From Candidatus Staskawiczbacteria bacterium (GTDB taxonomy: Bacteria > Patescibacteriota > Minisyncoccia > Minisyncoccales > Staskawiczbacteraceae), in the NCBI GenBank assembly GCA_041659225.1, contig JBAZYR010000005.1:7282-71281 (forward strand): DNA of 64,000 bases, in the 5' to 3' direction. A program made the translations under genes and the position numbers. Shown piece by piece: positions 20,996 to 64,000 of the stretch. The notes below the pieces were generated by a model, which worked only from the letters and a program-made list of their open reading frames with translations, was not told where the DNA came from and ran no database searches. Numbering within the stretch: position 1 is the stretch's first letter; the number at the start of each line of letters is the position of its first letter.

Positions 20996-21029
20996 TTCAC
21001 CCCGTAACGTTGTTACGGGGTTTTGTTTG
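20996..21029 (+). terminator. rho-independent terminator (CACCCCGTAAC-GTT-GTTACGGGG + TTTTGTTTG)
   Basis: Perfect 9-10 bp stem followed by a T-run. Confidence 0.6.
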
Positions 21030-21032
21030 CCC

Positions 21033-21061
21033 TTGACGTGCTTTTGATAGTATGATATAAT
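21033..21061 (+). promoter_or_regulatory. sigma70-like promoter TTGACG-17-TATAAT upstream of the secretin-like gene
   Basis: TTGACG at 21033-21038. 17-nt spacer. TATAAT at 21056-21061. AGGAG RBS 8 nt before ATG 21122. Confidence 0.55.
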
Positions 21062-21121
21062 ATATTTGTTGACTTCGCGTGGAGTCACGATAGTGTGTTC
21101 GTTGACATAGGAGTCTGTAAG

Positions 21122-34515: not shown

Positions 34516-35046
34516 ATGTTGGTGTTCTTTACGGTTGCTTTGATCGCATTTTTGTACGTGGTGCTGGGATTTATTCTCGGCCACGCCCATGACGTCGGCC
34601 ATGACATTCTAAGTCATGACGCGGATCATGAGGGTGCCGATGGCCACATGATCAGTATTTTCTCGACGCGAGTAATCGCCACCTTTATGATGGCTTTTGG
34701 AGCTGCTGGAGGAGTTTTCAAGTTTTACAATTTCAACTATCCTCTTTCATGCCTTGGTGGCATCGGCGCCGGCATAGTCGTGTCTATTCCCATTTATTTC
34801 TTACTGAATTTCATCGCGAAACAACAATCGAATTCTTTAGTGTTGACATCCTCTTTAGTCGGACTTTCTGGAGTTACGGAAACGGCAATGGAGGGGAATA
34901 TCATGGGCGAGGTTGCGGTGTTCGCGCTGGGCCGGCGTAACATTTACCAAGCCGTCTCTCGCTTGGGTAAGCCCATCGCCAAAGGATCGGCCGTGCGCGT
35001 GGTGAGAACCATGGGAAGTGACTTGGTTGTGGAAGTTCTGGCCTGA
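34516..35046 (+). CDS. NfeD-like membrane protein (short form, C-terminal OB-fold)
   Basis: Three N-terminal TM helices. C-terminal LGKPIAKGSAVRVVRTMGSDLVVEVLA matches the NfeD beta-domain. Sits upstream of an SPFH gene. Confidence 0.55.
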   Translation: MLVFFTVALIAFLYVVLGFILGHAHDVGHDILSHDADHEGADGHMISIFSTRVIATFMMAFGAAGGVFKFYNFNYPLSCLGGIGAGIVVSIPIYFLLNFIAKQQSNSLVLTSSLVGLSGVTETAMEGNIMGEVAVFALGRRNIYQAVSRLGKPIAKGSAVRVVRTMGSDLVVEVLA

Positions 35047-35084
35047 GTCGCGGAATCGCGACCGAAAGATAAGGAGAAGAGATT

Positions 35085-36752
35085 ATGATATCAGCGGTAG
35101 ACATCGCTCACACATTGGGGCAGTATTTGATCCCCATACTCGTTATACTGTTCTTCATCGCCGTCATCATCATGCTACGCGTGATGGTGAGCCGCTACCA
35201 GAAGATCCCGCCCAATAAGGTGGCGATCATCTTCGGACGCGGCACCAAGGTTGGGGGTGAGGGACAGATCCAGGGATGCAAGGTCGTCAGCGGCGGAGGC
35301 GTATTCGTCTGGCCAGTGTTCCAGTCGATCGACTACATGGACACCGCGGCCTTCCGAATGGCCATCAACGAAACGGGCGTCCCCAACAAAGAGAACGTGG
35401 GGATTAACGTTGCGGGTGTGGCGGTCTGCAAGATATCCACCTCACCCGAGGATCTACAGAGCGCTGCGATGTCCTTTCTCGGCCAGTCGCAGGCCCAGAT
35501 CCAGGAGACCATCTCCAGCGTCCTCATCGGCCATTTGCGTTCCATCATCGGTAAGCTGGACATCGACGGAATCCTTCGGGATCGCGATTCCTTCAACCGC
35601 ATGGTGGTGAACGAGTCGAACCCCGAGTTGAAGCGCATGGGGATCCAGATCGTCACCCTGGTCATTCAGGAAGTCAGTGATGAGCACGGCTACATCGCCG
35701 CGTTGGGTAAACGTGCGGTGGCCGAAGCCGTCAGGGATGCCGATATCAAAGTCGCACAGGCGCAAGCAGCGACGAGAATGTCGGTCAGCCAAGCCCAGCG
35801 AGAAGCGTCGGTTGTCGAGGCTCAGAATGCCGTTGCGATTGCTGATGCGGAAAAGGACCGCGACATCAAACGCGCTACCTTCAAGGCCGCAGCCGACACG
35901 GAGTTGGCCTTGGCTAACCAAGCCCTGGCCATTGCCACCGCGGCACAGGAGCAAATCCTGCGCGTTGCTCAGGCGGATCGGGATACAGCCGCAGCCGACG
36001 CACAAACCAAGGTCCAGGAGGCCGAGGCAAAGCGCATGGAGCAACAGCTCCAGGCCACGGTGATCAAGCCGGCAGAGGCCGAAAAGTCAGCGGCTATCAT
36101 CAAGGCCGAAGGGCTGAAGCAGGCTGCGATCCTCGAAGCCGAGGCACAGGGTCAAGTCGTGATTTGCAAAGCCGAAGGCGATGCAACTGCGGCGAAGAAA
36201 CTGGGTGAAGGTATGGCAGCGCAAACGCTGGCCACTCTCACTGCCAAGGCTCAGGGCGAAGCCGCCGTGACGGAGCAAGCCTTACTGGCAAAGGCCAAGG
36301 GCGAAGCCGCTCAGAAAGGCCTCGTTCTCACAGCCGAAGCCGAGGGCACGAAAAAGCTGGCGGACGCGCTGGCTCAGATGACCGAATCAGCCCGGCTGAT
36401 TCTGATTTTGGACCGGTTGCCGATACTGATGGATCGGGGCGGCGAAGCAGCCTCAAAGGTTGCACAAGCCGTATTTTCCAGCGTTGCGGCACCGTTCGGC
36501 CAGATCGACAGCCTGCGGATCGTCGACATGGGCGGTAACGGCAAAGCGCTCGAAGGGTTAGGCGATATTGTGCCCAACACCGTCTTCAAGTTCCTCGCCG
36601 GCATGCAAGCCCGCGGGATCGACATCAAGAAGGTTCTCGCCAAGCTCGGCATCGACGCCGACGAGATCACCAGTATGCTGAACGAGCTGGGATCGACCAT
36701 TCGACCGGTCGTGGCAGCCGGAGATCTCGTGTCGGACTCCGATCCGGCATAA
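35085..36752 (+). CDS. flotillin-like SPFH/band-7 protein
   Basis: N-terminal TM. SPFH core. Long Ala/Glu/Lys/Gln-rich coiled coil (AEAQ repeats). 555 aa. GC-elevated. Confidence 0.8.
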   Translation: MISAVDIAHTLGQYLIPILVILFFIAVIIMLRVMVSRYQKIPPNKVAIIFGRGTKVGGEGQIQGCKVVSGGGVFVWPVFQSIDYMDTAAFRMAINETGVPNKENVGINVAGVAVCKISTSPEDLQSAAMSFLGQSQAQIQETISSVLIGHLRSIIGKLDIDGILRDRDSFNRMVVNESNPELKRMGIQIVTLVIQEVSDEHGYIAALGKRAVAEAVRDADIKVAQAQAATRMSVSQAQREASVVEAQNAVAIADAEKDRDIKRATFKAAADTELALANQALAIATAAQEQILRVAQADRDTAAADAQTKVQEAEAKRMEQQLQATVIKPAEAEKSAAIIKAEGLKQAAILEAEAQGQVVICKAEGDATAAKKLGEGMAAQTLATLTAKAQGEAAVTEQALLAKAKGEAAQKGLVLTAEAEGTKKLADALAQMTESARLILILDRLPILMDRGGEAASKVAQAVFSSVAAPFGQIDSLRIVDMGGNGKALEGLGDIVPNTVFKFLAGMQARGIDIKKVLAKLGIDADEITSMLNELGSTIRPVVAAGDLVSDSDPA

Positions 36753-36820
36753 GCTGAGTTGGGGAGGCGAGGAGACAATCTTCTCGCCTCCCTCTCTCGG
36801 TATAAAGAAGGAGAGATGGC

Positions 36821-37390
36821 ATGCAAAAAGCCCGCGAACAAGTATCACCACCACTAGTGGTTGTGAGTGAACCGCCGAAAACCGGTGGCGGCGAGGCCTT
36901 AACGCCCGGAGCCGCCCAGTTCTATTCCGCGGTTGTCAACCCACAGCCAACCGCCGTGGTTATTCATTGCAGCGATCCAAGATTTCAAACCGCTTTCCGC
37001 GAATTCATTGAAACGGAATTAGGCCTGTCCGATGGACAGTATATTCCTTTCGTGATCGCGGGAGGAGCTGGAGTGTTGAGCCGACCTGAGGCCCTGCCGA
37101 AGGAATTCCGCTTCATGCGGGAGCGCCTGGAACTCTTCCGAGAGCACTTCAAATCGATAAGGCGGGTAATCCTGATCAACCATGAGGACTGCGCATACTA
37201 TCATAGTTTGTGCGAAAAAAGCTGGGCTCTCCGAACTCTCGCGCACCTTTTGCCGCGGGATGACATGAAGCTCATCGCTCAGGTTTTTCATCGCTTGCTG
37301 TCCCACCTTGGGATGCAAGTGGAACTCTATCACGCAAAGTTCTCCGATGACGAACGCACGCGAATCGTGTTTGAGCGAATAGAGCAATAG
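36821..37390 (+). CDS. beta-carbonic-anhydrase-fold protein, paralog of 31109..31570
   Basis: HCSDPRF (CxDxR), FVIAGGAGVL and ILINHEDCAYYH (HxxC). AAGGAG RBS. Confidence 0.45.
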   Translation: MQKAREQVSPPLVVVSEPPKTGGGEALTPGAAQFYSAVVNPQPTAVVIHCSDPRFQTAFREFIETELGLSDGQYIPFVIAGGAGVLSRPEALPKEFRFMRERLELFREHFKSIRRVILINHEDCAYYHSLCEKSWALRTLAHLLPRDDMKLIAQVFHRLLSHLGMQVELYHAKFSDDERTRIVFERIEQ

Positions 37391-37449
37391 AAATAACTTT
37401 CAAACCCCAAAGGACTCTAACCTGCGGGGTCTTCTTTTATACCAAATCA

Positions 37450-37479
37450 TTGACACATATTCTGAGAGGGGGATATAAT
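37450..37479 (+). promoter_or_regulatory. sigma70-like promoter TTGACA-18-TATAAT driving a ~520-nt unit without a long ORF
   Basis: TTGACA at 37450-37455. TATAAT at 37474-37479. The unit ends at the terminator at 37970-38015. Confidence 0.45.
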
Positions 37480-37773
37480 ATAATAATTGTTGCGCTATTT
37501 GCTTCGCAATGTGCGAGCAAAGCGCTCCGAAGGTCGCTCGTTTACAAGGAGTACGGTGTCATGTGCAAGATCGTTTTGTTTCGCGGGATTTGCAGTGGCC
37601 AGAGTGCGGACAAGATCATCGTCAGCACGACGGTCGTGGCGGCGCCGCTCCTAGCCTAGTTGGGACATGGGAGCAGACCAGTCGTCTGTAGGCAACGCGC
37701 ACACATTCAAAACTGGCATCGCTAAGTTGCGAGGCCACCCGAGTGGAAGACCACACACAAGGAGAACCTGACA

Positions 37774-48138: not shown

Positions 48139-49401
48139 ATGAATAAAAATATTGTAATTATTGCCCTGGCTATTGTTCTATTCGCGGGTGTAGCAACTGC
48201 AGCCGTTCTATTCATTTTCCCGTATTCTCCGAAACAACCTCCCGTGGCCGACGATACCGGCTCTACACCACAAGGCGTACAGGCTGTTGTAGACGCAAAC
48301 AATAAATTTACCTTTGAGCTATATTCCGAACTCGAAAAATCTGACAACGGAAATATATTTTACTCACCGTATAGTATTTCTGCTGCTTTGGCTATGACCT
48401 ATGAGGGCGCGAAAGGCCAAACGGCTGAGGAAATGAAATCCGTATTCCATTTTCCCGAAAGCGAAATATTAAGGCCGAATTTTGCCTCAATATATAATAA
48501 TCTCAATAAAAGCGTTGCCGACTATGAACTAAGAACCGGAAATGCATTATGGATTCAACAAAATTATCAGCTCCTCAAAGATTACACGGGCCGTGTTGAA
48601 AAATATTATGGAGGCAAAGCTGCAAATTTAGATTTTATTAACGAAACCGAAATGTCGCGGCAAACTATCAATAATTTTATCGCCGAACAGACAAATGATA
48701 AAATTAAAGGGCTAATCCCTCAAAGATTCCTCGATGTGATGACGAGGCTTGTATTGACCAATGCCATTTATTTTAAAGGCTCGTGGAAATGGGAATTTGA
48801 TAAATCCGATACCAGCGAACAGGATTTCAAGGTCACCCCCGACAATATTGTAAGAACCCAAATGATGAATATGAGACCCGATAAAACGACGTTTAACTAT
48901 GCCAGCACCGACAACCTACAAATCCTGGAGCTGCCATATAAGGGGGAGGAAGTCTCGATGTTGGTTCTATTACCGACCGGTAGCCTCGATTCGTTAGAAT
49001 CCTCTTTGACGGCCGAGAAGCTTAATGAATATAAGGCGCAGATGACGGAAACGACATTAGAATCGATATCACTTCCTAAGTTTGAATTCGACACCAAATA
49101 TTTTATGGGCGACAACTTGAGTGCAATGGGCATGCCGACGGCTTTTTCAACTGATGCGGATTTCTCTGGAATGACGGGCGCTCGAGACCTGTTCATTAGT
49201 TTTGTTATTCATCAAGCATACGTCAAAGTCGATGAAGAGGGGACTGAGGCCGCAGCTGCGACGGCGGTTGGGATGCGGACTACGTCGGCGGTGTTGTCAC
49301 CAAATATTTTTCGAGCGGACCATCCTTTCCTATTTATAATCCAGGAAAAGAAAACCGGGAATGTGCTATTTCTGGGCCGAGTAGTTGATCCGACGAAGTA
49401 G
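48139..49401 (+). CDS. serpin (serine protease inhibitor) with N-terminal membrane anchor/signal
   Basis: NAIYFKGSWKWEF serpin motif. Reactive-centre-loop hinge EEGTEAAAATAV. C-terminal FRADHPFLFIIQEKKTGNVLFLGRVVDP serpin signature. 420 aa. Confidence 0.85.
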   Translation: MNKNIVIIALAIVLFAGVATAAVLFIFPYSPKQPPVADDTGSTPQGVQAVVDANNKFTFELYSELEKSDNGNIFYSPYSISAALAMTYEGAKGQTAEEMKSVFHFPESEILRPNFASIYNNLNKSVADYELRTGNALWIQQNYQLLKDYTGRVEKYYGGKAANLDFINETEMSRQTINNFIAEQTNDKIKGLIPQRFLDVMTRLVLTNAIYFKGSWKWEFDKSDTSEQDFKVTPDNIVRTQMMNMRPDKTTFNYASTDNLQILELPYKGEEVSMLVLLPTGSLDSLESSLTAEKLNEYKAQMTETTLESISLPKFEFDTKYFMGDNLSAMGMPTAFSTDADFSGMTGARDLFISFVIHQAYVKVDEEGTEAAAATAVGMRTTSAVLSPNIFRADHPFLFIIQEKKTGNVLFLGRVVDPTK

Positions 49402-49719: not shown

Positions 49720-49986
49720 ATGTCAGAAATCGAGGAAATAAAAGCCGAAATCCGACGTATTAAGGAACGTAACAAAAAGGTTGAAATCGACAAAGCGTGG
49801 GAAACGAGCAGGTTTCGGATTATTTGTATTGCAGTAATTACATACATTATTGCTGCATTCTTTTTGTATTTTATCGGCAACGATAACTTTTTATTAAACG
49901 CGATCGTACCGGCAATCGGTTACTATCTGTCAACCCAGTCTCTTCCGTTCATCAAGCAATGGTGGGGGAGCAGGTTTATGAAATAA
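49720..49986 (+). CDS. small membrane protein (2 TM)
   Basis: 88 aa. Charged N-terminal helix then two hydrophobic helices. Stop lies 2 nt before the greA start. Confidence 0.4.
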   Translation: MSEIEEIKAEIRRIKERNKKVEIDKAWETSRFRIICIAVITYIIAAFFLYFIGNDNFLLNAIVPAIGYYLSTQSLPFIKQWWGSRFMK

Positions 49987-49988
49987 AA

Positions 49989-50441
49989 ATGCCTCAATAT
50001 TTTACCGCCGAAGGTATAAAAAAACTTAAAGAAGAGCTGCATCAACTAAAAACAGTTGAAACAAAAAAAGTTGTCGCGCTTTTAAAATACGCCGCTTCCT
50101 TCGGCGACCTTAAAGAAAATGCGGGTTACGACGACGCAAAGGAAAGACAGGCTTTCCTGGTTACCAAAATTAAGCAGCTCGAAGCTGTTATTAACGACGC
50201 GATAATTTATGAAAAGGGTGAAACGGATAAAGTCCAGATTGGCTCGACGGTATTGCTTGTATTCGGTGAAGACAAAGAGGAATTCCACATCGTCGCCCCC
50301 GCCGAATCCGATATTTTAAATAACAAATTATCGTATCAATCGCCATTGGGCCGGGAACTAATAGGCCGGAAGACGAAAGATGAATTCTTCTTCGAAAATA
50401 ACGGGGCAAAAGTAAAAGTAAAAATTCTGGAAATTCGCTAG
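49989..50441 (+). CDS. greA: transcription elongation factor GreA
   Basis: Coiled-coil tip GDLKENAGYDDAKE (acidic D/E pair). C-terminal FKBP-like domain. ATG 49989 is preferred over the track start 49959, which overlaps the upstream gene. Confidence 0.85.
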   Translation: MPQYFTAEGIKKLKEELHQLKTVETKKVVALLKYAASFGDLKENAGYDDAKERQAFLVTKIKQLEAVINDAIIYEKGETDKVQIGSTVLLVFGEDKEEFHIVAPAESDILNNKLSYQSPLGRELIGRKTKDEFFFENNGAKVKVKILEIR

Positions 50442-55913: not shown

Positions 55914-56465
55914 GTGAGTATTGTTCCAAATCACAGAAAGAACGTTTTGCAGGGTCCCGGGAAGGTAACCATAATGCCGACCATCGACAAGGAAGGCAAA
56001 CCGTCATCCTGCGGCCTGTTCGAAATCGGCGGCATGAAATTCCTTTCCGGCCGGATACTTGCGCAAAGCCATGCGCATGTTAGTTTAATGAAAAAAACTA
56101 TGCGGAAAGTGACTCCGCAACTAATCAGCACGTACTTTAAAAAGTCCGGGCTGACGCTTCAGGATTTCTTTACTGATAACCCCGAACGGACTCTCCAATA
56201 CTTCGGGGAACTTTGCGCGAAAATCATCAAAAGAGCTACTGAAAAGAAAATAACCGACATCCCCGCGGTAATAGATCACCTGCAGGAGTGGAAATCCACA
56301 CTTGAGAATGGAGCCCCGAAACCCCTCTGGGATAAACTGCACGATACAATCGTGACTCTACAGGATTTAGTCCCAGACGCTGATGACCTTGATCGCGATC
56401 CCGAGGATGAGCCACTCTTAACGATCGAACAATTGGCCGAACTGCAAAAAGAAAAACACGAATGA
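55914..56465 (+). CDS. hypothetical protein (GTG start), acidic C-terminus
   Basis: 183 aa. RBS-like AAGGCGG. No recognisable motif. Confidence 0.4.
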   Translation: MSIVPNHRKNVLQGPGKVTIMPTIDKEGKPSSCGLFEIGGMKFLSGRILAQSHAHVSLMKKTMRKVTPQLISTYFKKSGLTLQDFFTDNPERTLQYFGELCAKIIKRATEKKITDIPAVIDHLQEWKSTLENGAPKPLWDKLHDTIVTLQDLVPDADDLDRDPEDEPLLTIEQLAELQKEKHE

Positions 56466-56505: not shown

Positions 56506-56994
56506 TTATACGGATTGAGCGAATGTTTCAGCCATTGAGAGATACTTTGCTTTCTTGGGCCTGCTTTTGTATTTTGCGATATCCTTATGAATCGCCATTA
56601 GTTTTTGGAAATCACCGGGAATCCACGCAGCTAGGATTTTTCCTTTGTTCTTATAAATAATTTCAACTGCCTTGGACCAAGCTTGGAAATCATTTTTCTT
56701 TTTCCCTGATAAGGCGTGTTTTTTAAAATACGGAACAACGCATTCATAGACCTCAGTTATATTCTGAACAGAATAACGGGCTTGATTTTTAACAACATGA
56801 ACATTCCCGCATTGCAATGTATCACGGACAGATTCCAACACATTACTCTGGGATGCGTTTTTTGTGATAATAAATTGAACCTTCCATCGGTAGTAAGTAG
56901 GGGAGTTGGTCCTATTTGCTTTAGTATCTTTCCGGAATTGAAGGTCAAAACAGCCTTCTTGGTTTACTATTTGTACAATATTTATTTTTTCCAT
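56506..56994 (-). CDS. LAGLIDADG-family (LAGLIDADG_1-like) homing endonuclease, free-standing
   Basis: N-terminal IVQIVNQEGCFDLQF (cf. LAGFIDGEGCF). Downstream profile L..V...L.CG.V and C-terminal YFKKHALSGKKKNDFQAWSKAVEII...K (cf. F.kYPL.t.K..DF..W..v) match the LAGLIDADG_1 domain. 162 aa. Confidence 0.6.
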   Translation of the reverse strand: MEKINIVQIVNQEGCFDLQFRKDTKANRTNSPTYYRWKVQFIITKNASQSNVLESVRDTLQCGNVHVVKNQARYSVQNITEVYECVVPYFKKHALSGKKKNDFQAWSKAVEIIYKNKGKILAAWIPGDFQKLMAIHKDIAKYKSRPKKAKYLSMAETFAQSV

Positions 56995-57143: not shown

Positions 57144-57359
57144 ATGGAGGATAAAACCGTGCTTCGAATAGGAGAAGTCCGCATCAGTAGAATGCTGGGA
57201 TGGCATTGCTATTCACCCGACAAGAGGGACGAAAATCAGACTCACGTGCCAGAAAGTTGCCTAGTGTGCAAGGAATCCTTCCAGGACGGCACTCCACAGG
57301 TAGTCGTTGAGGCTGCTGACGGAACGCGGCACAAAACGCATGTTGATTGTTTCGACTAG
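57144..57359 (+). CDS. small hypothetical protein (71 aa, 4 Cys)
   Basis: Cys spacing C..C(x28)C..C is compatible with a Zn ribbon. Weak support. Confidence 0.3.
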   Translation: MEDKTVLRIGEVRISRMLGWHCYSPDKRDENQTHVPESCLVCKESFQDGTPQVVVEAADGTRHKTHVDCFD

Positions 57360-57376
57360 AAAGGAGGCATTTAAAT

Positions 57377-57724
57377 ATGGCTCATAAAATACCAACAATC
57401 TGCATAACGCGCGAGCCAATTACCGGTTTCTGCTATCCATTTTGTCGAGCGCTTCTCAACAAGCTCATTTCTCTGGCGCAGGAAGACAACCTTTTTGCCA
57501 AAGACGGCAAGCACGCATCAGAGAATCCTACGGGACAAAAAAACGTCCATCTCATCGATAATACAACTCCTTTGTCACTAGGCCTCACCCCAATCGCAGA
57601 CACTGTTATTAGAAACATCTGTGGTCAACTCAGGCTAGTGATGATAACAAAGTCTTCAGCTCAGCAAGTCGGCTCTTTTATCGACATGGTACGAGAGTTC
57701 CTCGATATTTTTGAAAAAGAATAA
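57377..57724 (+). CDS. hypothetical protein
   Basis: AGGAGG RBS 7 nt before ATG 57377, preferred over the track start 57347. 115 aa. Terminator GCGCC...GGCGC + T7 at 57745-57780. Confidence 0.4.
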   Translation: MAHKIPTICITREPITGFCYPFCRALLNKLISLAQEDNLFAKDGKHASENPTGQKNVHLIDNTTPLSLGLTPIADTVIRNICGQLRLVMITKSSAQQVGSFIDMVREFLDIFEKE

Positions 57725-57778
57725 ACAAGCACCACTAAGTATATGCGCCAAAAGTCCCCGGACCCAGGCGCTGTTTTT

Positions 57779-57915
57779 TTGTTCGCTTAACATATATGTG
57801 AGGAGCTAATTGTGTCGACCTGAAACTTCGTAATACGGCTGTTGTGCGAAAATAATATAAATTCCTGAACCCGTTACGCCAACATTTTAAGGCGGTTTTT
57901 AGTTTGACAAACATA
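57779..57915 (+). repeat. conserved intergenic motif, copy 1 (core ACATATATGTGAGGAGCTAATTGTGTCGACCTGAAACTTCGTAATACGG at 57790-57838) with downstream TTGACA
   Basis: Core is near-identical to copy 2 at 61816-61864 (one mismatch in 49). It shares TTGTTCGCTTAACATATAT with copy 3. Looser homology continues through GGTTTTTAGTTTGACA. Confidence 0.7.
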
Positions 57916-58010
57916 GCGGTTTGCCATATTGTACAGTGTAATGGCGTGTGCCATATCACAGCTTTTTTAAAACACAATTTCGCTGCCACATGGCAGAGAG
58001 GAGGCTCGAG

Positions 58011-58559
58011 GTGAAGAATTTCATCGTACTAGAAGGCTTGAGCGGAAGCGGAAAAACAACCATCGGTAAACTATTAGCCGAACGTATGGGGGCTGATTTT
58101 TACAAAACTCCGCCGGCAGTTTTCCGGTCTATTCGGGATGAAGTCGATCGGACCGCCGGCACGATGTCCCGTTTCTTTTTCTATCTGTCAGGAACTCTTT
58201 TATCTTCTCAAGAGATCTCACGGATTCTGGAGAATAGAGACGTGATTTGCGACCGATATATTTACACCACCATATGTTATCATCTGGCCATAGGGCTGGA
58301 CTTCGAAATACCGGCCGCGCTTTTCCAGCAAATCGTCATGCCCAACCATTTTTTTCTGGTAACCTGTCGCGAAGAAACTAGAATTAAAAGACTGAGCGCA
58401 AGGGGGATGACCGCAAACGACATAGCCGAAAGAAAAGAGGGAATTGAAGCGCGATTCATCGCCGAGTACAGGAAATTCAAGCCGGTTGAGATCGACAACT
58501 CAGGGAACAGCCCCGAGTATGCTGTTGAGCAAATCATGGGCATCGTCGGAAGAGGTTGA
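58011..58559 (+). CDS. thymidylate-kinase-like nucleoside monophosphate kinase
   Basis: GAGGAGG RBS, GTG 58011. (V)KNFIVLEGLSGSGKTT P-loop in the classic Tmk context. DRY motif (DRYIYTTICYH). 182 aa. Confidence 0.6.
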   Translation: MKNFIVLEGLSGSGKTTIGKLLAERMGADFYKTPPAVFRSIRDEVDRTAGTMSRFFFYLSGTLLSSQEISRILENRDVICDRYIYTTICYHLAIGLDFEIPAALFQQIVMPNHFFLVTCREETRIKRLSARGMTANDIAERKEGIEARFIAEYRKFKPVEIDNSGNSPEYAVEQIMGIVGRG

Positions 58560-58563
58560 AACC

Positions 58564-59169
58564 ATGAAAAAGATTATCTTAACAGGTGGAACATCCGGCG
58601 GGAAAACAACAATTCTAGAGAGGTTAAAAAAACGCTTCAATCGCAATGCCGTTTTTGTCCGAGAGACAGCAACACTGTTACTCGAAGGCGGCTATCCAAA
58701 ACCGGGTGATTTATTGCCCTGGAGCCAAGACTGGCATTTATTATTTGAAGATGCGGTCTTCTATCTGCAGAGATCTTTGGAAGATGCCAGTTCATTAGTA
58801 GCACGACACCAAAACTGCGACTTGATTATCTGCGACCGCGGCCTTCTCGACGTGGCCGGACATCTGCCCGGAGGAAGGGCACAGTTCTGCTGCCGGTACG
58901 ACACGACGGAAGAAGAATCTCTGTCGCGATATGATGTCGTCATTCATTTAGTCTCATTTGCCATGTTCGACCCTACCGGGTATTCCGCAGTGGCGGAAAC
59001 TAGGTGGGGGAACTCACATCTTTCATCACTCGAGTACGCTCATTGTACTGAAAGGGCAACGTTAGACGCTTGGTCTAATCACAAAAGAAGATATATAGTG
59101 GGCGGTCAAGGAAACATCGATCGTAAAACAGCGGAAGTAATCGAAATCATTGAGCGCGCTATTGCATGA
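58564..59169 (+). CDS. AAA_28/NadR-like P-loop kinase/ATPase
   Basis: MKKIILTGGTSGGKTTILERL resembles the ribosylnicotinamide-kinase (NadR C-terminal/AAA_28) N-terminus. ATG 58564 directly follows the upstream stop. 201 aa. Confidence 0.45.
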   Translation: MKKIILTGGTSGGKTTILERLKKRFNRNAVFVRETATLLLEGGYPKPGDLLPWSQDWHLLFEDAVFYLQRSLEDASSLVARHQNCDLIICDRGLLDVAGHLPGGRAQFCCRYDTTEEESLSRYDVVIHLVSFAMFDPTGYSAVAETRWGNSHLSSLEYAHCTERATLDAWSNHKRRYIVGGQGNIDRKTAEVIEIIERAIA

Positions 59170-59329
59170 ATACGCGCTCTTTTCTTAAATCAGTATCTGG
59201 CGACTTGTAATTTAGGCGCAGAAAGGGCAAAATATATTAACGAATAATTGGAAACTGCCCCCTGTCAGAGACGGTTTCCGCCCTCTATGCCGAACCGGAG
59301 AAACGAAGATAAAGGTAACAAGTTTTTGT

Positions 59330-61036
59330 ATGCAGAAAAATAATATTTTAGACATTTATAAAAAAATCTATGACCTACCGGAACTTTCTCAAACCGAAAA
59401 GGTGGATTTTAATTTTTTCCGATTATGCGAAAAAAACTATAATTTTGTCGTAGTCAGCGCGTACAATGAAAAACATGAATTTCTTCTGACTAGAGATCTT
59501 AACAAAGATATCGGTTGGGAATTAGTTGGAGGGTATATAAAAGACGGGGAAAACATTATAGACGCCGCAAACCGGGTCGTTTTAAAGGAGACAGGCCTCA
59601 TCATAGATGAGTTGCAGCCCATAGCAATTATTAATAATAATTTCAAATTTAATAATGGGATTATCACCCATCGGGGAATCGCATTTATTGCGTTATCTCG
59701 GAAGAAGATCAAACCACAGCCGGAAAACATCAAAGTGATATACACAGAAGATGCGCCCGACAAAATGGCATATTACAATAAAGAAATATTCAAAATTGCG
59801 AAAGAAATATTAACGATAAAAAACTTTAACCCGCCATATGATGAAATCGACAGCGCTAAAAAGTTTTTACCGTTGCACCTAATTAATAAGTATTTTATTA
59901 GTATAGTCGGACAGATATCATCCAGAAAAATAAAGAAACGTATACTAGGCCTGATCTCTTCAAACCCCAAGTCGATAATAGATGTATGTTGCGGTGACGA
60001 CAGCTTTATTTTCCAGCTTGAGCGGCGGTACAAGCCCGAAATTTTTGTCGCCAATGACATCTCCTGGAAAACTTTGCTACTATTAAAAAATCGGAACAAA
60101 AAGAGCGACATAATTTTTACTAATCACAACGTGATTGATTTGCCCTTTCAGGATAAGTTTGACCTGGTGATATTTAAAAATAGTCTTCATCATATAGATA
60201 GGGGGGATCAAGCCGATTTAGTGAAAAACTTTTCTGACATATCGAAAGAGCTAATAGTTGTCGATATTGAAGATCCTAACAGGTCTAATTTCCTTTCGAA
60301 AATATGGCACTATTACTATGTATATTTTCTTGGAGACGTAGGAGGAAATTTTTTCACATATGGCGAGTTCAAGGAATTTATAAAAAACAACATAAAAGGC
60401 AAGGAAATAAAATTCGGAGTCATTGACACTATTAAGGGAAGATATTTCTATTCGGTTCTGAGAGAAAAGGCCAACATGGAAGAGGTAGAAATAAAAGTTA
60501 AACTGAATGACAGCTCGGTTAAGGAGGTGCGGAAAGAGTTATACAAATTAGGTGCGATACTAGACGGTGAGGACGAAGAAAGGGACACGTATTTTACTGC
60601 CCCACATCGGGATTTTATTAAAACAAAAGAGTGTCTTAGGATACGGGAGAAGGGTGCCTATACCGAACTCACATATAAAGGGCCGACTACAAAAGAAATG
60701 CTGAAGAAAAAACAATTTTGGAAGCCTGAAATCAACATTCCATTCAAAGGTAACCGGGATGATGTGGAAACGATGCTCGAGATGTTAAGCTTTAAAAAAG
60801 TGGTTGATTTCACCAAACATCGAGAAAAATTCTTGTTAGGCGCGAAAACCATAACCATCGATAAAATAGGTGATTTAGGATATTTTCTCGAGATAGAAGA
60901 AGTTGTTAGAACAAAGAAAGATAGGGAAAGGGTTTTGGAGGAAAATATTGAATTTCTGGATGTTTTTAAGCTATCTAAAAAAGATATTGTTGAGAAGCCT
61001 TATCGGGACCTAGTTATTGAATCTAATAAAAGCTAG
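59330..61036 (+). CDS. tri-domain protein: Nudix hydrolase-like (degenerate Nudix box) + class I SAM-dependent methyltransferase + CYTH (triphosphate tunnel metalloenzyme) domain
   Basis: Nudix box GGYIKDGENIIDAANRVVLKETGL (G..5..E..7..R.V..KE.GL, two catalytic Glu replaced). MTase motif I IIDVCCGDDS and motif DLVIFKNSLHH. CYTH N-terminal EVEIKVKL plus LRIRE and TELTYKGP. 568 aa. Confidence 0.65.
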   Translation: MQKNNILDIYKKIYDLPELSQTEKVDFNFFRLCEKNYNFVVVSAYNEKHEFLLTRDLNKDIGWELVGGYIKDGENIIDAANRVVLKETGLIIDELQPIAIINNNFKFNNGIITHRGIAFIALSRKKIKPQPENIKVIYTEDAPDKMAYYNKEIFKIAKEILTIKNFNPPYDEIDSAKKFLPLHLINKYFISIVGQISSRKIKKRILGLISSNPKSIIDVCCGDDSFIFQLERRYKPEIFVANDISWKTLLLLKNRNKKSDIIFTNHNVIDLPFQDKFDLVIFKNSLHHIDRGDQADLVKNFSDISKELIVVDIEDPNRSNFLSKIWHYYYVYFLGDVGGNFFTYGEFKEFIKNNIKGKEIKFGVIDTIKGRYFYSVLREKANMEEVEIKVKLNDSSVKEVRKELYKLGAILDGEDEERDTYFTAPHRDFIKTKECLRIREKGAYTELTYKGPTTKEMLKKKQFWKPEINIPFKGNRDDVETMLEMLSFKKVVDFTKHREKFLLGAKTITIDKIGDLGYFLEIEEVVRTKKDRERVLEENIEFLDVFKLSKKDIVEKPYRDLVIESNKS

Positions 61037-61145
61037 AGATTTAATCCACCCTCTGTTTGTTGACAAATAGTAGCTTTGTAATATAATAACAAAGCCCTTT
61101 GAAATATAAGAAATGTCTTTCCAGATAAAAGTGAAAGGAGACAAC

Positions 61146-61625
61146 ATGTTCTATTTCTTAAGCGATGACCTTACAAAACTACGGGAAATAATCAAAAAAG
61201 TAAGAGAAGAACTCGACGCAGCTCTCAAAAGCATTGGAGACGCCTGCGAAGGGGAGTCCAATACTTGGCATGATAACTTCGCGTATGAAGAAGGCCAGCG
61301 CCAGGTGGACATGGTATCAAGACGATATCAGGAGCTGCAGACGATGTTTATGAACGTTGCTGTCATAGACCCCCCAAAGGATAATCTCAAAGTTCAGATC
61401 GGCCACACAGTTGTTGTTAAAGACCCTTACGAGAAAGAAGATCAAGTATACAGGATTGGCAGCTATATGTGCTTTCAGGAAGACGAAAATGAAGATGGAG
61501 GTGATCAGGTTATCTCCTATGCCGCACCGCTTGGGCAGCTTTTCATGGGCGCTAAAGTCGGCGAATATAGAGGAGGAAACATCGGTGGAAGACCCAGAAC
61601 GTTCAAGATTATACAAATCAGATAG
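61146..61625 (+). CDS. GreA/GreB-family protein, second paralog (Rnk/Gfh-like)
   Basis: AAGGAG RBS. C-terminal FKBP-like VQIGHTVVV...ISYAAPLGQLFMGAKVGE parallels GreA (V.iGs.V.v...s..SPlGrALiGkkvGd). Coiled-coil tip GDACEGESNTWHDNFAYEEGQ with an insertion. Confidence 0.55.
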   Translation: MFYFLSDDLTKLREIIKKVREELDAALKSIGDACEGESNTWHDNFAYEEGQRQVDMVSRRYQELQTMFMNVAVIDPPKDNLKVQIGHTVVVKDPYEKEDQVYRIGSYMCFQEDENEDGGDQVISYAAPLGQLFMGAKVGEYRGGNIGGRPRTFKIIQIR

Positions 61626-61805
61626 AATAAATATTTTTTATCCGTCATCGAATTTCCTTCACTCCAACAATAGTCCGAAATGAAAGTTTTGGGCTTTTTT
61701 CTTGTTCCGTCTAGTCCGGGCGGAAAGAGTGCTGAAGCGATACGCGCCTTTTCGAGAGCCAGTTAGAACTGAGCATAAAGACCAGATAAAATTAGTTAAA
61801 TAAAA

Positions 61806-61950
61806 ACTTCGGGAAACATATATGTGAGGAGCTAATTGTGTCGACCTAAAACTTCGTAATACGGTTTAGTTGTGCAATAGTCCAAGCCCCACCCATCAAC
61901 GCTGATACCAGGGGTTTAAACCGGCGAGAGGAGGTTTTTGGTTTGACACG
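61806..61950 (+). repeat. conserved intergenic motif, copy 2 (core 61816-61864) with downstream TTGACA and a 10-1-10 palindrome
   Basis: Core ACATATATGTGAGGAGCTAATTGTGTCGACCTAAAACTTCGTAATACGG. TTGACA at 61942-61947. Perfect palindrome ATTATTGTAA-C-TTACAATAAT at 61959-61979. Confidence 0.7.
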
Positions 61951-62031
61951 AAGAGTCCATTATTGTAACTTACAATAATCGTTGTTGTTTGACATTTTGT
62001 GCTGGGCGAAACTCTTTTGGAGGAACAGAAA

Positions 62032-62271
62032 ATGTCCTGGAACACCTTCGACGGCTTCAGTGTCAGCCGGGTCCACAGTTTCCGCGGTGGAAAGAACAAA
62101 GTGACGGGCAAGGGGAGTAAGGATCCCCGCGCCAAGTTGGTCGGCATGGAAAGATCCATGCGTGATATTATAGTTAGACTCGAAAGAGCGATGAGGATGC
62201 AGCAACGGGCTAACGCACCCAAACCGCGGGTCCGACCTGCATCTACCAGTTCCCGCCCCAAATACTACTAA
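62032..62271 (+). CDS. small basic protein (79 aa)
   Basis: GGAGG RBS 8 nt before ATG 62032. Lys/Arg-rich C-terminal half. Followed by the terminator GCCCC...GGGGC + T7 at 62310-62342. Confidence 0.35.
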   Translation: MSWNTFDGFSVSRVHSFRGGKNKVTGKGSKDPRAKLVGMERSMRDIIVRLERAMRMQQRANAPKPRVRPASTSSRPKYY

Positions 62272-62340
62272 GTACATTTTCTACCCCACCAGATAAGCTA
62301 TTTCGCCATGCCCCAGAGATGACATCAAGGGGCTCTTTTT

Positions 62341-62376
62341 TTGTTCGCTTAACATATATTTGAGGAGCTACGGGCC
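62341..62376 (+). repeat. conserved intergenic motif, copy 3 (partial: TTGTTCGCTTAACATATATTTGAGGAGCTA)
   Basis: Immediately follows a terminator T-run, as copy 1 does. Lies between convergent gene ends (62271 and 62414). Confidence 0.6.
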
Positions 62377-62413
62377 ACAAAGTAAGTGTGTTCTAAATTT
62401 TTCTGTTTTATCA

Positions 62414-63346
62414 TCACTTTACATCCCTTCTTTCAAGTATACCAAAACCGTCGGCGATTGCAGCGCATAGAAAGTTTTCGAGCTGGCTTTGGTCTTTTTT
62501 TGTTTGGGCGTTATAGAGATAAGTGTAATATAGTTGTTTTTGTTGCTGCTTGATTATTGCCGGGGCAAAATTGTACTCCAAAAGCATGGCACTCATCAGT
62601 AAACGCCCGACACGGCCGTTGCCATCAGAAAACGGGTGGATTTTCTCAAACTTACTGTGCACGCTAGCAGATAGAGCGACAATGTCTTTTGTCTTACTTC
62701 GAGCCTCTTCGATGACTTCCGTTATTAATTTTGGGACGCTTAAATGGTTTGCCGTAGGTAAATTGATGCCTCTAATTCTTACGCCATGATTTCTGTATTT
62801 GCCGGCGTCAGGCCGGACTCCATTCATAAGTATGATGTGGAGTTTAAGGATTAACTCTTCGTTAATTTCTTCTCTCTCTGAGATATAGTCAAATAAATAA
62901 TTTAAGGCAGTCTGATGATTTTTTGCCTCCAGCTGTTCGGTTAAGCTTTTATTTGGCAAGGCAACATTGTCAAAGATAACTGCAGCTGTGTCCTTCTCAT
63001 CAAGCGTGCTTCCCTCTATGCTGTTGCTGTTATAAGTCAGCTTTAGGATAAACTGGTCTCGTATATCCGGGTTGGCTAAAATCTCATCAATAACTCGTTT
63101 GTATTGTGACGACTTTTGCTGTAGCGCCTGTTTTTTTGCAACCAGTTCATTGTCAGGGATTACTTTCTGGCCCGTAACTTCTAAAAATAGCTCATCAATT
63201 GCGGCTTGCTTCTTTGCTCGGGGAGTAGATCTTCCTTTCCACCAGCTATTGAAGGTAGCAAAAGACACGCCGAGCCTTTCAGCTAATTTAGTCTGAGTCA
63301 GTCCAAGCATCCTTCTTATTATCTCTAATTTTTGTCTTATTGTCAT
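62414..63346 (-). CDS. Fic/DOC family protein with N-terminal XRE-type HTH
   Basis: Fic motif HPFSDGNGRVGRLLM (HxFx(D/E)GNGRxxR). N-terminal HTH LGLTQTKLAERLGVSFATFNSW. 310 aa. Confidence 0.85.
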   Translation of the reverse strand: MTIRQKLEIIRRMLGLTQTKLAERLGVSFATFNSWWKGRSTPRAKKQAAIDELFLEVTGQKVIPDNELVAKKQALQQKSSQYKRVIDEILANPDIRDQFILKLTYNSNSIEGSTLDEKDTAAVIFDNVALPNKSLTEQLEAKNHQTALNYLFDYISEREEINEELILKLHIILMNGVRPDAGKYRNHGVRIRGINLPTANHLSVPKLITEVIEEARSKTKDIVALSASVHSKFEKIHPFSDGNGRVGRLLMSAMLLEYNFAPAIIKQQQKQLYYTYLYNAQTKKDQSQLENFLCAAIADGFGILERRDVK

Positions 63347-63578
63347 AATATTCGTATTTAATGCCTACGACCCCATATTACCAAACTTTATAAAGTTAGT
63401 CAAATATGGTAAAACTATATAAAGTTATCATTTTTAACGGACGGGCCCTAGGAAACTTCGCGAAACATATATTTTGCGACGTCTTAAAAATTAGCTTTAC
63501 TTGGATTATTTATAGTTGTACAGTTATATAAGTATATAGAATTTATGCAGTACCCAAAATTGCTGCTTTTCGTCTACT

Positions 63579-63986
63579 ATGCATATAACCAACCTAAGTA
63601 TTAAAAACTTTAGAAATTTCGCTGATTTTAGTATAGATTTAAATTCATTTACTTTAATTATCGGCGAAAACAATACCGGGAAAACAAATTTACTAGAATC
63701 TCTTTGCTTGTTATTCGGACAGGAGATTACAATGTTTAGGAAAAGAATGTTGACAATGGATGATATTAATTATCAGTCTATTAAGGAATTTAAGGAAAAA
63801 GTAAAAAATTCAGAAATTGACGTTGAATCTATTATTTTTCCAGAAGTGAAAATTGAGGCTATTATGACGGATTTTAATGACGACCAGGCATCCATAGTCG
63901 GCGACTGGTTTATTGATGAAAATCTTGAAAAAGCTAAGCTCACCTACATTTTTTCTCTGAGACCAGGGTGGCAAAAAAAAAATTGA
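63579..63986 (+). CDS. OLD-family (AAA_15/AAA_21-like) ATPase N-terminus, apparently truncated or frameshifted directly after an A10 homopolymer
   Basis: ITNLSIKNFRNFADFSIDL...IIGENNTGKTNLLESL is the characteristic OLD/RecF-like N-terminal ATPase start. The ORF stops at TGA 63984-63986, immediately after the A10 run at 63971-63980, after only 135 aa. Family members are about 500-600 aa. Confidence 0.5.
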   Translation: MHITNLSIKNFRNFADFSIDLNSFTLIIGENNTGKTNLLESLCLLFGQEITMFRKRMLTMDDINYQSIKEFKEKVKNSEIDVESIIFPEVKIEAIMTDFNDDQASIVGDWFIDENLEKAKLTYIFSLRPGWQKKN

Positions 63987-64000
63987 GTGGCTGAAGGAGC

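Follow-up and report, generated by a model that had tools for sequence, protein, structure and literature searches.

The question raised by this locus is whether a run of genes at the right-hand end of a patescibacterial DNA stretch forms a single system and, if so, what that system does. The stretch analyzed here (the window) comprises 64,000 nucleotides from a Candidatus Staskawiczbacteria bacterium (contig JBAZYR010000005.1, positions 7,282 to 71,281) and is part of a 785-kb contig (ENA ERZ27249449 k141_522868), on which the extended locus is designated L001. An initial annotation, made from the sequence, had listed seven genes from about 57.7 kb to the window end and had suggested that together they fit a nucleotide-centered defense or toxin-like island or, alternatively, a nicotinamide-riboside/nucleotide salvage module. 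Profile searches with Pfam, NCBIfam, and PADLOC found all seven genes and their domains at the coordinates given below, and the gene list was in this respect borne out. Four of these genes, named here K1, K2, FUS, and GreL, were found to make up one self-contained, horizontally mobile module at 57.8-61.9 kb, which adjoins but is independent of a helix-turn-helix (HTH) Fic gene and a Gabija system. Linkage of the genes, a gene fusion, and the exchange of partner enzymes between loci indicate that GreL, K1, and FUS have a joint role in nucleotide chemistry and, to judge from the Gre fold, probably one that is exerted at RNA polymerase. The genes of the module are as follows, with the E-value of the domain match where one applies:

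58011..58559, plus strand: K1, a Tmk/CMPK2-like nucleoside-monophosphate (NMP) kinase (Pfam Thymidylate_kin, 1.5e-17)
58564..59169, plus strand: K2, an AAA_28 P-loop kinase or ATPase (Pfam AAA_28, 5.7e-19)
59330..61036, plus strand: FUS, a 568-aa fusion of Nudix-like, S-adenosylmethionine (SAM) methyltransferase, and CYTH domains (Pfam)
61146..61625, plus strand: GreL, a Gre-family protein and predicted RNA polymerase secondary-channel factor (GreA_GreB C-terminal domain, 2e-08)

The extent of the module was delimited by the genes that accompany FUS elsewhere. About 70 homologues of FUS were found, full- or part-length and almost all in Patescibacteria, and the FUS type was present in 13 of 185,579 species genomes. 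Thirteen genome and 79 metagenome loci were gathered and searched with all window proteins, and all of their open reading frames (ORFs) were clustered; the counts over 94 loci include L001 and L002, both of this genome. The families recurring with FUS were GreL (57 loci), K1 (44 loci), and a stand-alone CYTH protein (23 loci). A membrane-protein family recurred in 19 loci at no fixed position, and each of the other flanking families was limited to eight loci or fewer. After dereplication at 90% identity, which gave 29 groups with at least 1.5 kb on both sides, GreL was adjacent to FUS in 28 groups and K1 in at least 20. The stand-alone CYTH protein (about 200 aa; Pfam, 24.1 bits, above the cut-off) was found beside 380-aa forms of FUS that consist of the Nudix and methyltransferase parts only, with a separate CYTH gene adjacent in 10 of the 11 short-form groups. 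Gene order and strand varied, including (i) Gre-K1-FUS; (ii) K1-FUS-Gre; and (iii) FUS followed by CYTH, K1, and a Gre gene on the opposite strand, and the flanking genes were otherwise unrelated from locus to locus. K2 was detected only in this genome (L001 and L002) and in a 73%-identical relative, while the Fic gene, gajA, and a gene for a 79-aa protein stood near FUS in this genome alone and in none of the 92 loci of other assemblies. This pattern of co-occurrence supports a three-to-four-gene module and not a seven-gene island. The association of the kinase pair with FUS, which the initial annotation had proposed to check, was borne out for K1 and even more tightly for the Gre paralogue, and not for the AAA_28 kinase, an add-on found in two lineages.

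Three of the loci were placed beside genes of the transcription and translation machinery. In another Patescibacteria genome (L114, 7266-10731), an HD_4 gene of the RelA/SpoT-hydrolase type is followed by Gre-K1-FUS, the whole lying between rpsJ and rplC; in two other loci the module abuts nusA (L113) and rpoB (L103).

GreL and the kinase were also recovered in other phyla and with other enzymes. In Bradyrhizobium oligotrophicum, a GreL gene (…CDWHDNFGYED…) overlaps a gene for a FUS-homologous Nudix-like-methyltransferase protein. In locus L115, from an organism of 59% guanine-cytosine (GC) content, the two core proteins are joined in a single GreA_N + GreA_C + Thymidylate_kin fusion (P0277), downstream of whose gene lie a FUS homologue (32% identity, 1.7e-50), a type II DNA methyltransferase, and a CRISPR locus of type III-B (Cmr). 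On an IMG/VR contig (L118), genes for an integrase and a weakly AAA_28-like kinase are followed in a row by those for GreL, K1, and a FUS homologue; other GreL operons likewise have a second kinase with weak AAA_28 similarity. Two loci of Myxococcota and Proteobacteria (L099 and L101) combine a radical-SAM enzyme and a kinase with GreL and a K1-like kinase, the last matching the PADLOC model PDC-M51B at 1e-50. Three further GreL loci hold (i) a Tmk-like kinase, a peptidase-U32-like protein, an aminotransferase, and a GHMP kinase; (ii) a HAD hydrolase, a Tmk/dNK-like kinase, a metallo-beta-lactamase, and a peptidase-U32-like protein; and (iii) a peptidase-U32-like protein, a GHMP-kinase-methyltransferase fusion, an aminotransferase, and Ham1, beside a large serine recombinase (L111). 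Near another locus of the module type (L120), a PLD-SNF2 protein is encoded. The constant core across phyla is GreL with a K1-type kinase, and the nucleotide-modifying enzymes are swappable; they include Nudix-like-methyltransferase proteins with or without CYTH, radical-SAM, peptidase-U32-like, and GHMP-kinase-methyltransferase proteins, aminotransferases, and Ham1, HAD, or Nudix hydrolases. The radical-SAM partner was considered as a true viperin, an identity that is not established: its best solved relative was a radical-SAM protein without a name (8wm2), and PqqE, MoaA, and BlsE came next.

GreL was examined for its relationship to the Gre factors of RNA polymerase. It aligned full-length to GreA models and matched the Pfam GreA_GreB C-terminal domain at 34.5 bits (cut-off 26.9); the GreA_GreB_N domain gave no match in GreL, but P0277, the fused homologue, has it at 27.0 bits (cut-off 24.5). 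The AlphaFold model (mean predicted local distance difference test, pLDDT, 90.9) consists of helices at 6-34 and 45-69 and a beta-rich C-terminal domain, and a Foldseek search with it gave template-modeling (TM) scores of 0.80 to GreA in a modeled RpoB-GreA complex (9a7t_B), 0.78 to Gfh1 bound to RNA polymerase, and 0.75 to GreB; a Nitrosomonas GreA/GreB-family protein was also among the matches. The coiled-coil tip sets GreL apart. Where GreA reads G-D-L-[KS]-E-N-A-E-Y, the module-linked Gre proteins read [D/E]-x(0-3)-W-H-D-N-[FPA]-x-[FY], so that in GreL the residues W41-H42-D43-N44 stand in place of L-K/S-E-N: an invariant Asp occupies the position of GreA E44, an invariant Asn that of N45, and W and H replace L and K/S. 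Over 34 diverse homologues the H, D, and N of the tip were invariant and the W nearly so. When the GreL profile was run against 1.84 billion representative proteins, 265 clusters (50% identity) were returned at E <= 1e-30, and the [W/F/Y]HDN tip was present in 132 of the 139 newly returned best matches that were checked. GreL was found on three viral contigs, with an integrase adjacent in one group and a chromosomal island as the setting of another. That GreL is the housekeeping GreA of this organism was ruled out by a canonical GreA gene in the same window:

49959-50441: canonical GreA, tip GDLKENAGY (motif and annotation)

Since the genome holds this canonical GreA, GreL is an extra, specialized paralogue. 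In locus L103 (4437-5459), two divergent Gre-like genes adjoin each other, with tips LWHENAAFEQ (with a weak GreA_N match) and AWHDNFAFEE; the former seems to stand midway between the WHDN type and a canonical GreA.

The kinases differed in how closely they resemble catalogued proteins. K1 starts with GTG behind a GAGGAGG ribosome-binding site, in an ORF open from 57948, and carries the P-loop (GLSGSGKTT) and DRY motif of NMP kinases. Among PADLOC models it matched PDC-M51B (4e-29) and VakA, the viperin-associated kinase (2.6e-23, aligned over 1-138 of 163), and it fell under the TIGR00041 dTMP-kinase equivalog cut-off (59.8 versus 83.25 bits); K1 thus appears to fit the defense-associated kinase models better than housekeeping dTMP kinase. 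For K2, only 17 homologues were found, those with a named source being from Patescibacteria, and no specific name was obtained from PADLOC, PHROGs, or NCBIfam; it is a lineage-specific second kinase added to the module.

FUS was resolved into three domains. A NUDIX match at residues 38-129 (7.8e-10) lies in a Nudix-fold domain of about 38-165; a Methyltransf_25 match at 216-304 (5.8e-10) lies in a class I SAM methyltransferase domain of about 200-380; and a CYTH match at 383-558 (9.6e-22) lies in a domain spanning 383-568. The AlphaFold model of the whole protein had a mean pLDDT of 84.3, with TM scores of 0.87-0.89 between its CYTH domain and the triphosphate tunnel enzymes SaTTM (7ns9) and PH1819 (2een). 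In the CYTH domain, which also scored above the cut-off for TIGR00318 cyaB (93.9 bits), the ExExK motif is intact (E385, E387, and K389) and, together with R437, R439, K450, E521, and E523, was invariant in 21 sequences. Methyltransf_25 and Methyltransf_11 were both above their cut-offs, and D218, G222, and D243 of the methyltransferase were invariant. Two of the three REUxEE glutamates of the Nudix box are lost across the FUS family, the Nudix fold and Pfam match being kept, and the degenerate domain may bind rather than hydrolyze; no Nudix Pfam match was obtained for the FUS homologues of Bradyrhizobium, L115, and L118. Of the chemistry proposed in the initial annotation, pyrophosphate or triphosphate hydrolysis together with methylation, pyrophosphate hydrolysis by the Nudix domain is therefore doubtful, given the degenerate box; the CYTH and methyltransferase motifs are intact. 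Neither FUS nor GreL was given a specific name by PADLOC, PHROGs, or NCBIfam. A phage origin for FUS was also considered and set aside, no relative having been found among viral contigs.

The reading we favor for how these proteins might act together, at a probability of roughly 0.4, is that the module resembles viperin: it would produce a modified nucleotide directed at RNA polymerase, against which GreL would protect the polymerase of the cell itself. In such a scheme the enzymes would make a modified nucleotide, here a methylated one. The methyltransferase would modify the base or ribose, the CYTH tunnel and Nudix-like domain would handle or bind the phosphate chain, and K1 and K2, along with the nucleoside-diphosphate kinase of the cell, would raise the product to the triphosphate. 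The product would then act on transcribing RNA polymerases and poison the transcription of an invader, much as do the chain-terminating 3'-deoxy-3',4'-didehydro-nucleoside triphosphates (ddhNTPs) of viperin. GreL would dock in the secondary channel of the host RNA polymerase, and its altered tip would cut the analogue off the RNA 3' end; in a chemical system aimed at phages or competitors, GreL would thereby provide self-immunity.

Several lines of evidence favor this viperin-like reading. One is the recurrent linkage of GreL and K1 to FUS, together with the GreL-K1 fusion and the recurrence of this core beside other enzyme chemistries; another is the complete Gre fold of GreL, with its nearly invariant tip, in a genome that also has a canonical GreA. 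K1 is homologous to the viperin-associated kinases, and linkages of viperin to kinases and to triphosphatases/cyclases have been published (bioRxiv 10.1101/2023.09.13.557418). The rarity of the module and the mobile or defense contexts of several loci point the same way; these contexts include the Gabija, Fic, and restriction-like genes of the present locus, the Cmr genes of L115, the integrase of L118, the serine recombinase of L111, and the PLD-SNF2 protein of L120. In addition, GreL has its own exact sigma-70 consensus promoter, and the sites found upstream of it were:

61060-61087, plus strand: perfect sigma-70 consensus promoter TTGACA-16-TATAAT, predicted, upstream of GreL
61073-61095: operator-like palindrome GCTTTGTAAT/ATAACAAAGC, overlapping the GreL promoter-like site

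A promoter-like site of its own and an operator-like palindrome would suit an immunity gene.

A number of observations count against the viperin-like reading. The module has no evident sensor or trigger, and making a chain terminator all the time would carry a cost. Of the two acidic tip residues that drive transcript cleavage in GreA, D41 and E44, the first lacks a strict counterpart in GreL, where it varies in both place and identity. FUS departs from the Nudix box GX5EX7REUXEEXGU, reading G68-x5-E74-x7-R82-V-V-L-K-E87-T-G89-L, and the fold neighbors of its methyltransferase (small-molecule methyltransferases and the Hen1 RNA 3'-end methyltransferase) single out no substrate. No PADLOC model matches FUS or GreL, and the radical-SAM partners found in other GreL operons match the prokaryotic viperin (pVip) models weakly and over the radical-SAM core alone (1e-9 to 1e-13). 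Lastly, on three long contigs the module sits among housekeeping genes of transcription and translation (nusA; rpoB; rpsJ-rplC with HD_4), settings that fit a physiological role at RNA polymerase as well as they fit defense.

Such settings bring in the alternative that survives best, which we nonetheless consider somewhat unlikely: a regulatory system in which the enzymes make and degrade an alarmone-like or methylated nucleotide signal and GreL is its receptor or co-factor in the secondary channel, as DksA is for guanosine tetraphosphate (ppGpp), the outcome being a tuning of host transcription and not action against phage. The GreL-kinase fusion suggests nucleotide chemistry tethered to RNA polymerase, as a regulator of this kind would have it, and the positions beside nusA, beside rpoB, and inside a ribosomal-protein cluster with an HD_4 gene are in keeping with it. 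So are the full Gre fold of GreL, like that of Gfh1 and the Nitrosomonas GreA/GreB-family protein, and the presence of CYTH, Nudix-like, Ham1, HAD, and metallo-beta-lactamase proteins, all phosphohydrolase types that could switch a signal off. However, the distribution of the module is very sparse and patchy, as the 13 genomes with the FUS type illustrate; the partner enzymes are freely swapped; integrases, recombinases, CRISPR, restriction-like genes, or Gabija accompany the module in several loci; and K1 is related to viperin-associated kinases. Such traits are those of conflict systems rather than of core regulation, and the HD_4 gene was found in one lineage only.

The same phosphohydrolase folds could be read differently, as house-cleaning enzymes. 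GreA and GreB are known proofreading factors of RNA polymerase, and Patescibacteria are thought to depend on scavenged nucleotides. Against this background, the hydrolases and the methyltransferase might inactivate foreign or damaged nucleotide analogues, such as those produced by competitors, hosts, or phages, while GreL removes those already incorporated into RNA, making the module one of sanitation or resistance and not of production; the Nudix, Ham1/ITPase, HAD, CYTH triphosphatase, and metallo-beta-lactamase-type partners all belong to folds used in such cleaning. We hold this to be unlikely, as no partner is as constant as the kinases, which also occur fused to GreL, the radical-SAM, aminotransferase, GHMP-kinase, and methyltransferase partners look biosynthetic, and the Nudix box of FUS is degenerate.

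Far less probable still is the reading of the genes as housekeeping functions that are neighbors by chance and serve nucleotide or nicotinamide-riboside salvage, salvage being the second option of the initial annotation. The generic Tmk-like and AAA_28 (NadR-C-like) matches would allow it, as would the presumed reliance of Patescibacteria on salvage. However, K1 is closer to defense-associated kinase models than to dTMP kinase, K2 is confined to two lineages, and the nicotinamide-riboside version is left with the generic AAA_28 match alone, as the called genes of the 21.7-kb stretch around the module gave no Pfam match to nicotinamide-mononucleotide (NMN) adenylyltransferase or PnuC. In addition, tight linkage to and fusion with a Gre paralogue are left unexplained by salvage, and the module is far too rare for housekeeping.

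A repeat punctuates the locus and marks the ends of the module. The initial annotation had described three copies of one 50-60 nt motif; the repeat was found to be real, and its description had to be amended in that it is a mosaic, only a core of about 20 nt is common to the three copies, and a fourth copy is present:

57766-57849, plus strand: repeat copy 1, full form, with left arm, core (57789-57808), and right arm
61807..61875, plus strand: repeat copy 2, core and right arm, a 57-nt direct repeat of copy 1 at 93%
62328..62370, plus strand: repeat copy 3, terminator T-run, left arm, and core
63456..63474, plus strand: fourth, shorter copy of the core (CTTCGCGAAACATATATTT), 105 nt upstream of GajA

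The core, AACATATAT[G/T]TGAGGAGCTA, had three matches where 0.01 were expected and, with the shorter copy counted in, four where 0.11 were expected. Copy 1 matches copy 3 on its left (43 nt at 93%, terminator T-run included) and copy 2 on its right (57 nt at 93%). All four copies are on the plus strand within 57.78-63.47 kb, and neither the rest of the 64-kb window nor the next 7 kb contained the core. Copies 1 and 2, which are 4026 bp apart, bracket exactly K1, K2, FUS, and GreL, with copy 1 forming the left boundary of the module and copy 2 the right. L002, a 4053-bp contig from another sample, is 100% identical to 57792-61844, has a 27-nt terminal overlap, and begins and ends inside the repeat; its ends could be an assembly break at the repeat or could reflect a circular (excised) form. 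The core holds a perfect palindrome, ACATATATGT, and sits 105-230 nt upstream of three operon starts, both of which argue for an operator. The repeat may be either a shared operator or the junction scars of a cassette-wise, recombinational assembly of the island. A structured RNA or riboswitch was rejected for the repeat, which folds no better than shuffles (z = +0.1 to +2.2), and no Rfam match was obtained at E <= 1 in 57-64 kb. The repeat was likewise rejected as a hallmark of the module, the 20-mer core being absent from the 92 related loci of other assemblies and from IMG/VR; the motif does not travel with the module in other genomes and is a feature of the island in this genome.

Other promoter-, palindrome-, and terminator-like sites of the region were:

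57745..57780, plus strand: terminator-like hairpin (GCGCC...GGCGC) with U-run, ending the upstream 125-aa gene (fold)
57904..57932, plus strand: promoter-like TTGACA-17-TATTGT upstream of the kinase genes (consensus match only)
61672..61695, plus strand: intrinsic-terminator-like site after GreL
61959-61979: 10-bp perfect palindrome

The left arm of repeat copy 1, which spans 57781..57849 when counted apart from the hairpin at 57745-57780, is joined directly to that hairpin, and a homologous hairpin with T-run and another stem sequence precedes copy 3. Each sub-unit of the locus had been credited with its own promoter, palindrome, and terminator; sites of this kind are present at 61060-61095, 61959-61979, 61672-61695, and 57745-57780, but the totals of promoter-like and terminator-like sites are not far above those of shuffles, and the claim stands only in part. 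A hairpin (GAGCGCG...CGCGCTC) with TTTTCTT spans the K2 stop codon (59150-59185), and GC content falls from 48% over K1-K2 to 37% over FUS, which together suggest that the kinase pair and FUS are separate transcription units of different origin.

To the right of the module lie three genes that belong to other systems or to none:

62032..62271, plus strand: 79-aa basic protein, outside the module (no family match)
62414..63346, minus strand: HTH_3 + Fic protein, a separate single-gene defense candidate (Pfam Fic, 4.2e-20)
63579..64000, plus strand: 5' part of GajA, OLD-family ATPase of Gabija (AAA_15/OLD-type N terminus, 6e-17)

The 79-aa protein had zero matches in Pfam, NCBIfam, PADLOC, and PHROGs and no homologue in any related locus. 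The Fic protein matched PADLOC PDC-S04 (2.4e-43) and SoFic (5.9e-29). The OLD gene is gajA (PADLOC, 4.2e-189), and gajB (7.4e-114) follows just past the window end, giving a complete Gabija pair with the Pfam domains AAA_15 and OLD-like_TOPRIM in the first protein and UvrD-helicase in the second. Within the window the gajA frame is broken by an A10 run at 63974-63983, with a stop codon at 63984-63986; the ENA copy has A9 (L001 14645-14653) and encodes an intact 594-aa GajA, the two copies being otherwise identical over 14.6 kb. Either the run was misread in sequencing or assembly, or it reflects phase variation of a defense gene at a homopolymer. In L001 14250-21707 (window 63579 to about 71036), the genes run in order GajA, GajB, an N6_N4 DNA methyltransferase, a 181-aa protein with a weak PDDEXK_11 match, a 261-aa RNase H protein, a Top1-type zinc-ribbon protein, and an Mrr_cat nuclease. 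The proposal of an accessory or defense island was strengthened by this extension past 64000. The Gabija pair, the PDC-S04-type Fic protein, and these downstream genes identify the right-hand part of the locus as a conventional defense island, in which Fic and Gabija are separate known or candidate defense systems and not parts of the module.

The notion that all seven repeat-punctuated genes form one nucleotide-centered defense or toxin system, to which their adjacency and the presence of a palindromic, possibly operator-like core at four intergenic boundaries (57.8-63.5 kb) and nowhere else in 71 kb lend some appeal, is largely refuted by the lack of co-occurrence across the 94 loci and is the least probable of all, given also that GajA and GajB are a complete Gabija, that Fic matches a single-gene candidate, and that related loci and viral contigs are without the motif.

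Elsewhere in the window, a free-standing LAGLIDADG_1 homing-endonuclease gene (56506-56994, minus strand, 3.7e-14) lies just left of the island, with three unannotatable ORFs around it (55914-56465, 57144-57359, and 57347-57724); no rRNA match was found in the window, and no rRNA or intron context at this gene. About 0.5 kb upstream of the canonical greA of this Patescibacteria genome, a full-length serpin is encoded (48139-49401; Pfam, 3.8e-119). Two segments, 35000-37500 and 21000-22500, have 53-59% GC in a genome of about 42% GC; they are not rRNA, as Rfam gave two tRNAs only, and their products are a secretin-like protein, an SPFH/Band 7 protein of 555 aa, and a protein of 189 aa without a match.

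Searches of the literature bear on how far the module is new. Full-text searches, with subscription-only papers outside their scope, found no paper that joins a Gre paralogue with viperin, nucleotide kinases, or defense; the sole mention of a GreA/B domain in the conflict-systems literature that was found, that of 'TPR-GreA/B-PIN systems', concerns another architecture. The statement that this gene combination is not a described system held for the searchable literature and PADLOC, and the only tie to catalogued systems is the kinase (VakA and PDC-M51B). The module is thus apparently undescribed, a new gene set among nucleotide-analogue or secondary-channel-factor systems, and the probability that it stands as a separate, new class is substantial. 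A more specific proposal, which we put forward as a possibility more doubtful than the viperin-like reading, is a new RNA-polymerase-directed class in which a W-H-D-N Gre protein and an NMP kinase form a core for docking and activation and swappable enzymes supply different modified nucleotides. The Gre paralogue of such a class would be either the self-immunity determinant that excises the analogue or a device that couples the analogue to the polymerase.

If these proposals are true, they would describe a new logic for chemical immunity and a new Gre function, spread from Patescibacteria to Proteobacteria and Myxococcota. The family of nucleotide-analogue defense or regulatory systems would extend beyond viperin to SAM-dependent methylation with a triphosphate-tunnel enzyme, and would gain its first built-in paralogue of a transcript-cleavage factor, suggesting a way in which the producer could shield its own RNA polymerase from the chain terminator that it makes. 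A separate branch of the Gre proteins, with 265 or more clusters at 50% identity and the HDN tip in 132 of 139 checked, would also be assigned a function. New modified nucleoside triphosphates might be of interest as antiviral leads or tools, and the tiny genomes of Patescibacteria would be credited with a rare candidate immune module. With a fusion of the core genes and an exchange of their partners to build on, the idea lends itself to a direct test.

Compared with known systems, the module is most like prokaryotic viperin. Both link a kinase of the Tmk/CMPK2 NMP-kinase family to a nucleotide-modifying enzyme, as the match of K1 to VakA illustrates; both are sporadic and occur in defense-island or mobile contexts; and some operons with GreL and K1 hold a radical-SAM enzyme with weak pVip similarity. 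The module in the window differs in using a SAM methyltransferase, a CYTH domain, and a Nudix-like domain, with no radical-SAM gene found in 55-64 kb or in the 7 kb downstream. It differs further in its dedicated Gre-family factor, none of which was found reported for viperin systems. With PDC-M51 of PADLOC the likeness is limited to component B, which K1 and the K1-type kinases of GreL operons match; no match to PDC-M51A was obtained in the module or in the related operons tested, and no publication on PDC-M51 was found. Gabija, represented by the GajA gene at 63579 and its GajB, is a neighbor of the module and not part of it. Similar to the triphosphate tunnel metalloenzymes of the CYTH family (SaTTM, Saci_0718; PH1819; and CyaB), FUS has the ExExK motif, the Arg, Lys, and Glu residues of the tunnel, and the tunnel fold; unlike them, its CYTH domain is fused to a methyltransferase and a Nudix-like domain, and may act as a cyclase or as a triphosphatase. 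Finally, among the Gre-family and other secondary-channel factors (GreA, GreB, Gfh1, Rnk, and DksA), GreL has the full two-domain Gre fold, with an N-terminal coiled coil and a C-terminal globular domain, but is set apart from GreA by its W-H-D-N tip with a variably placed first acidic residue, and from these factors by being always an accessory gene that is linked, and once fused, to a nucleotide kinase and linked to nucleotide-modifying enzymes.

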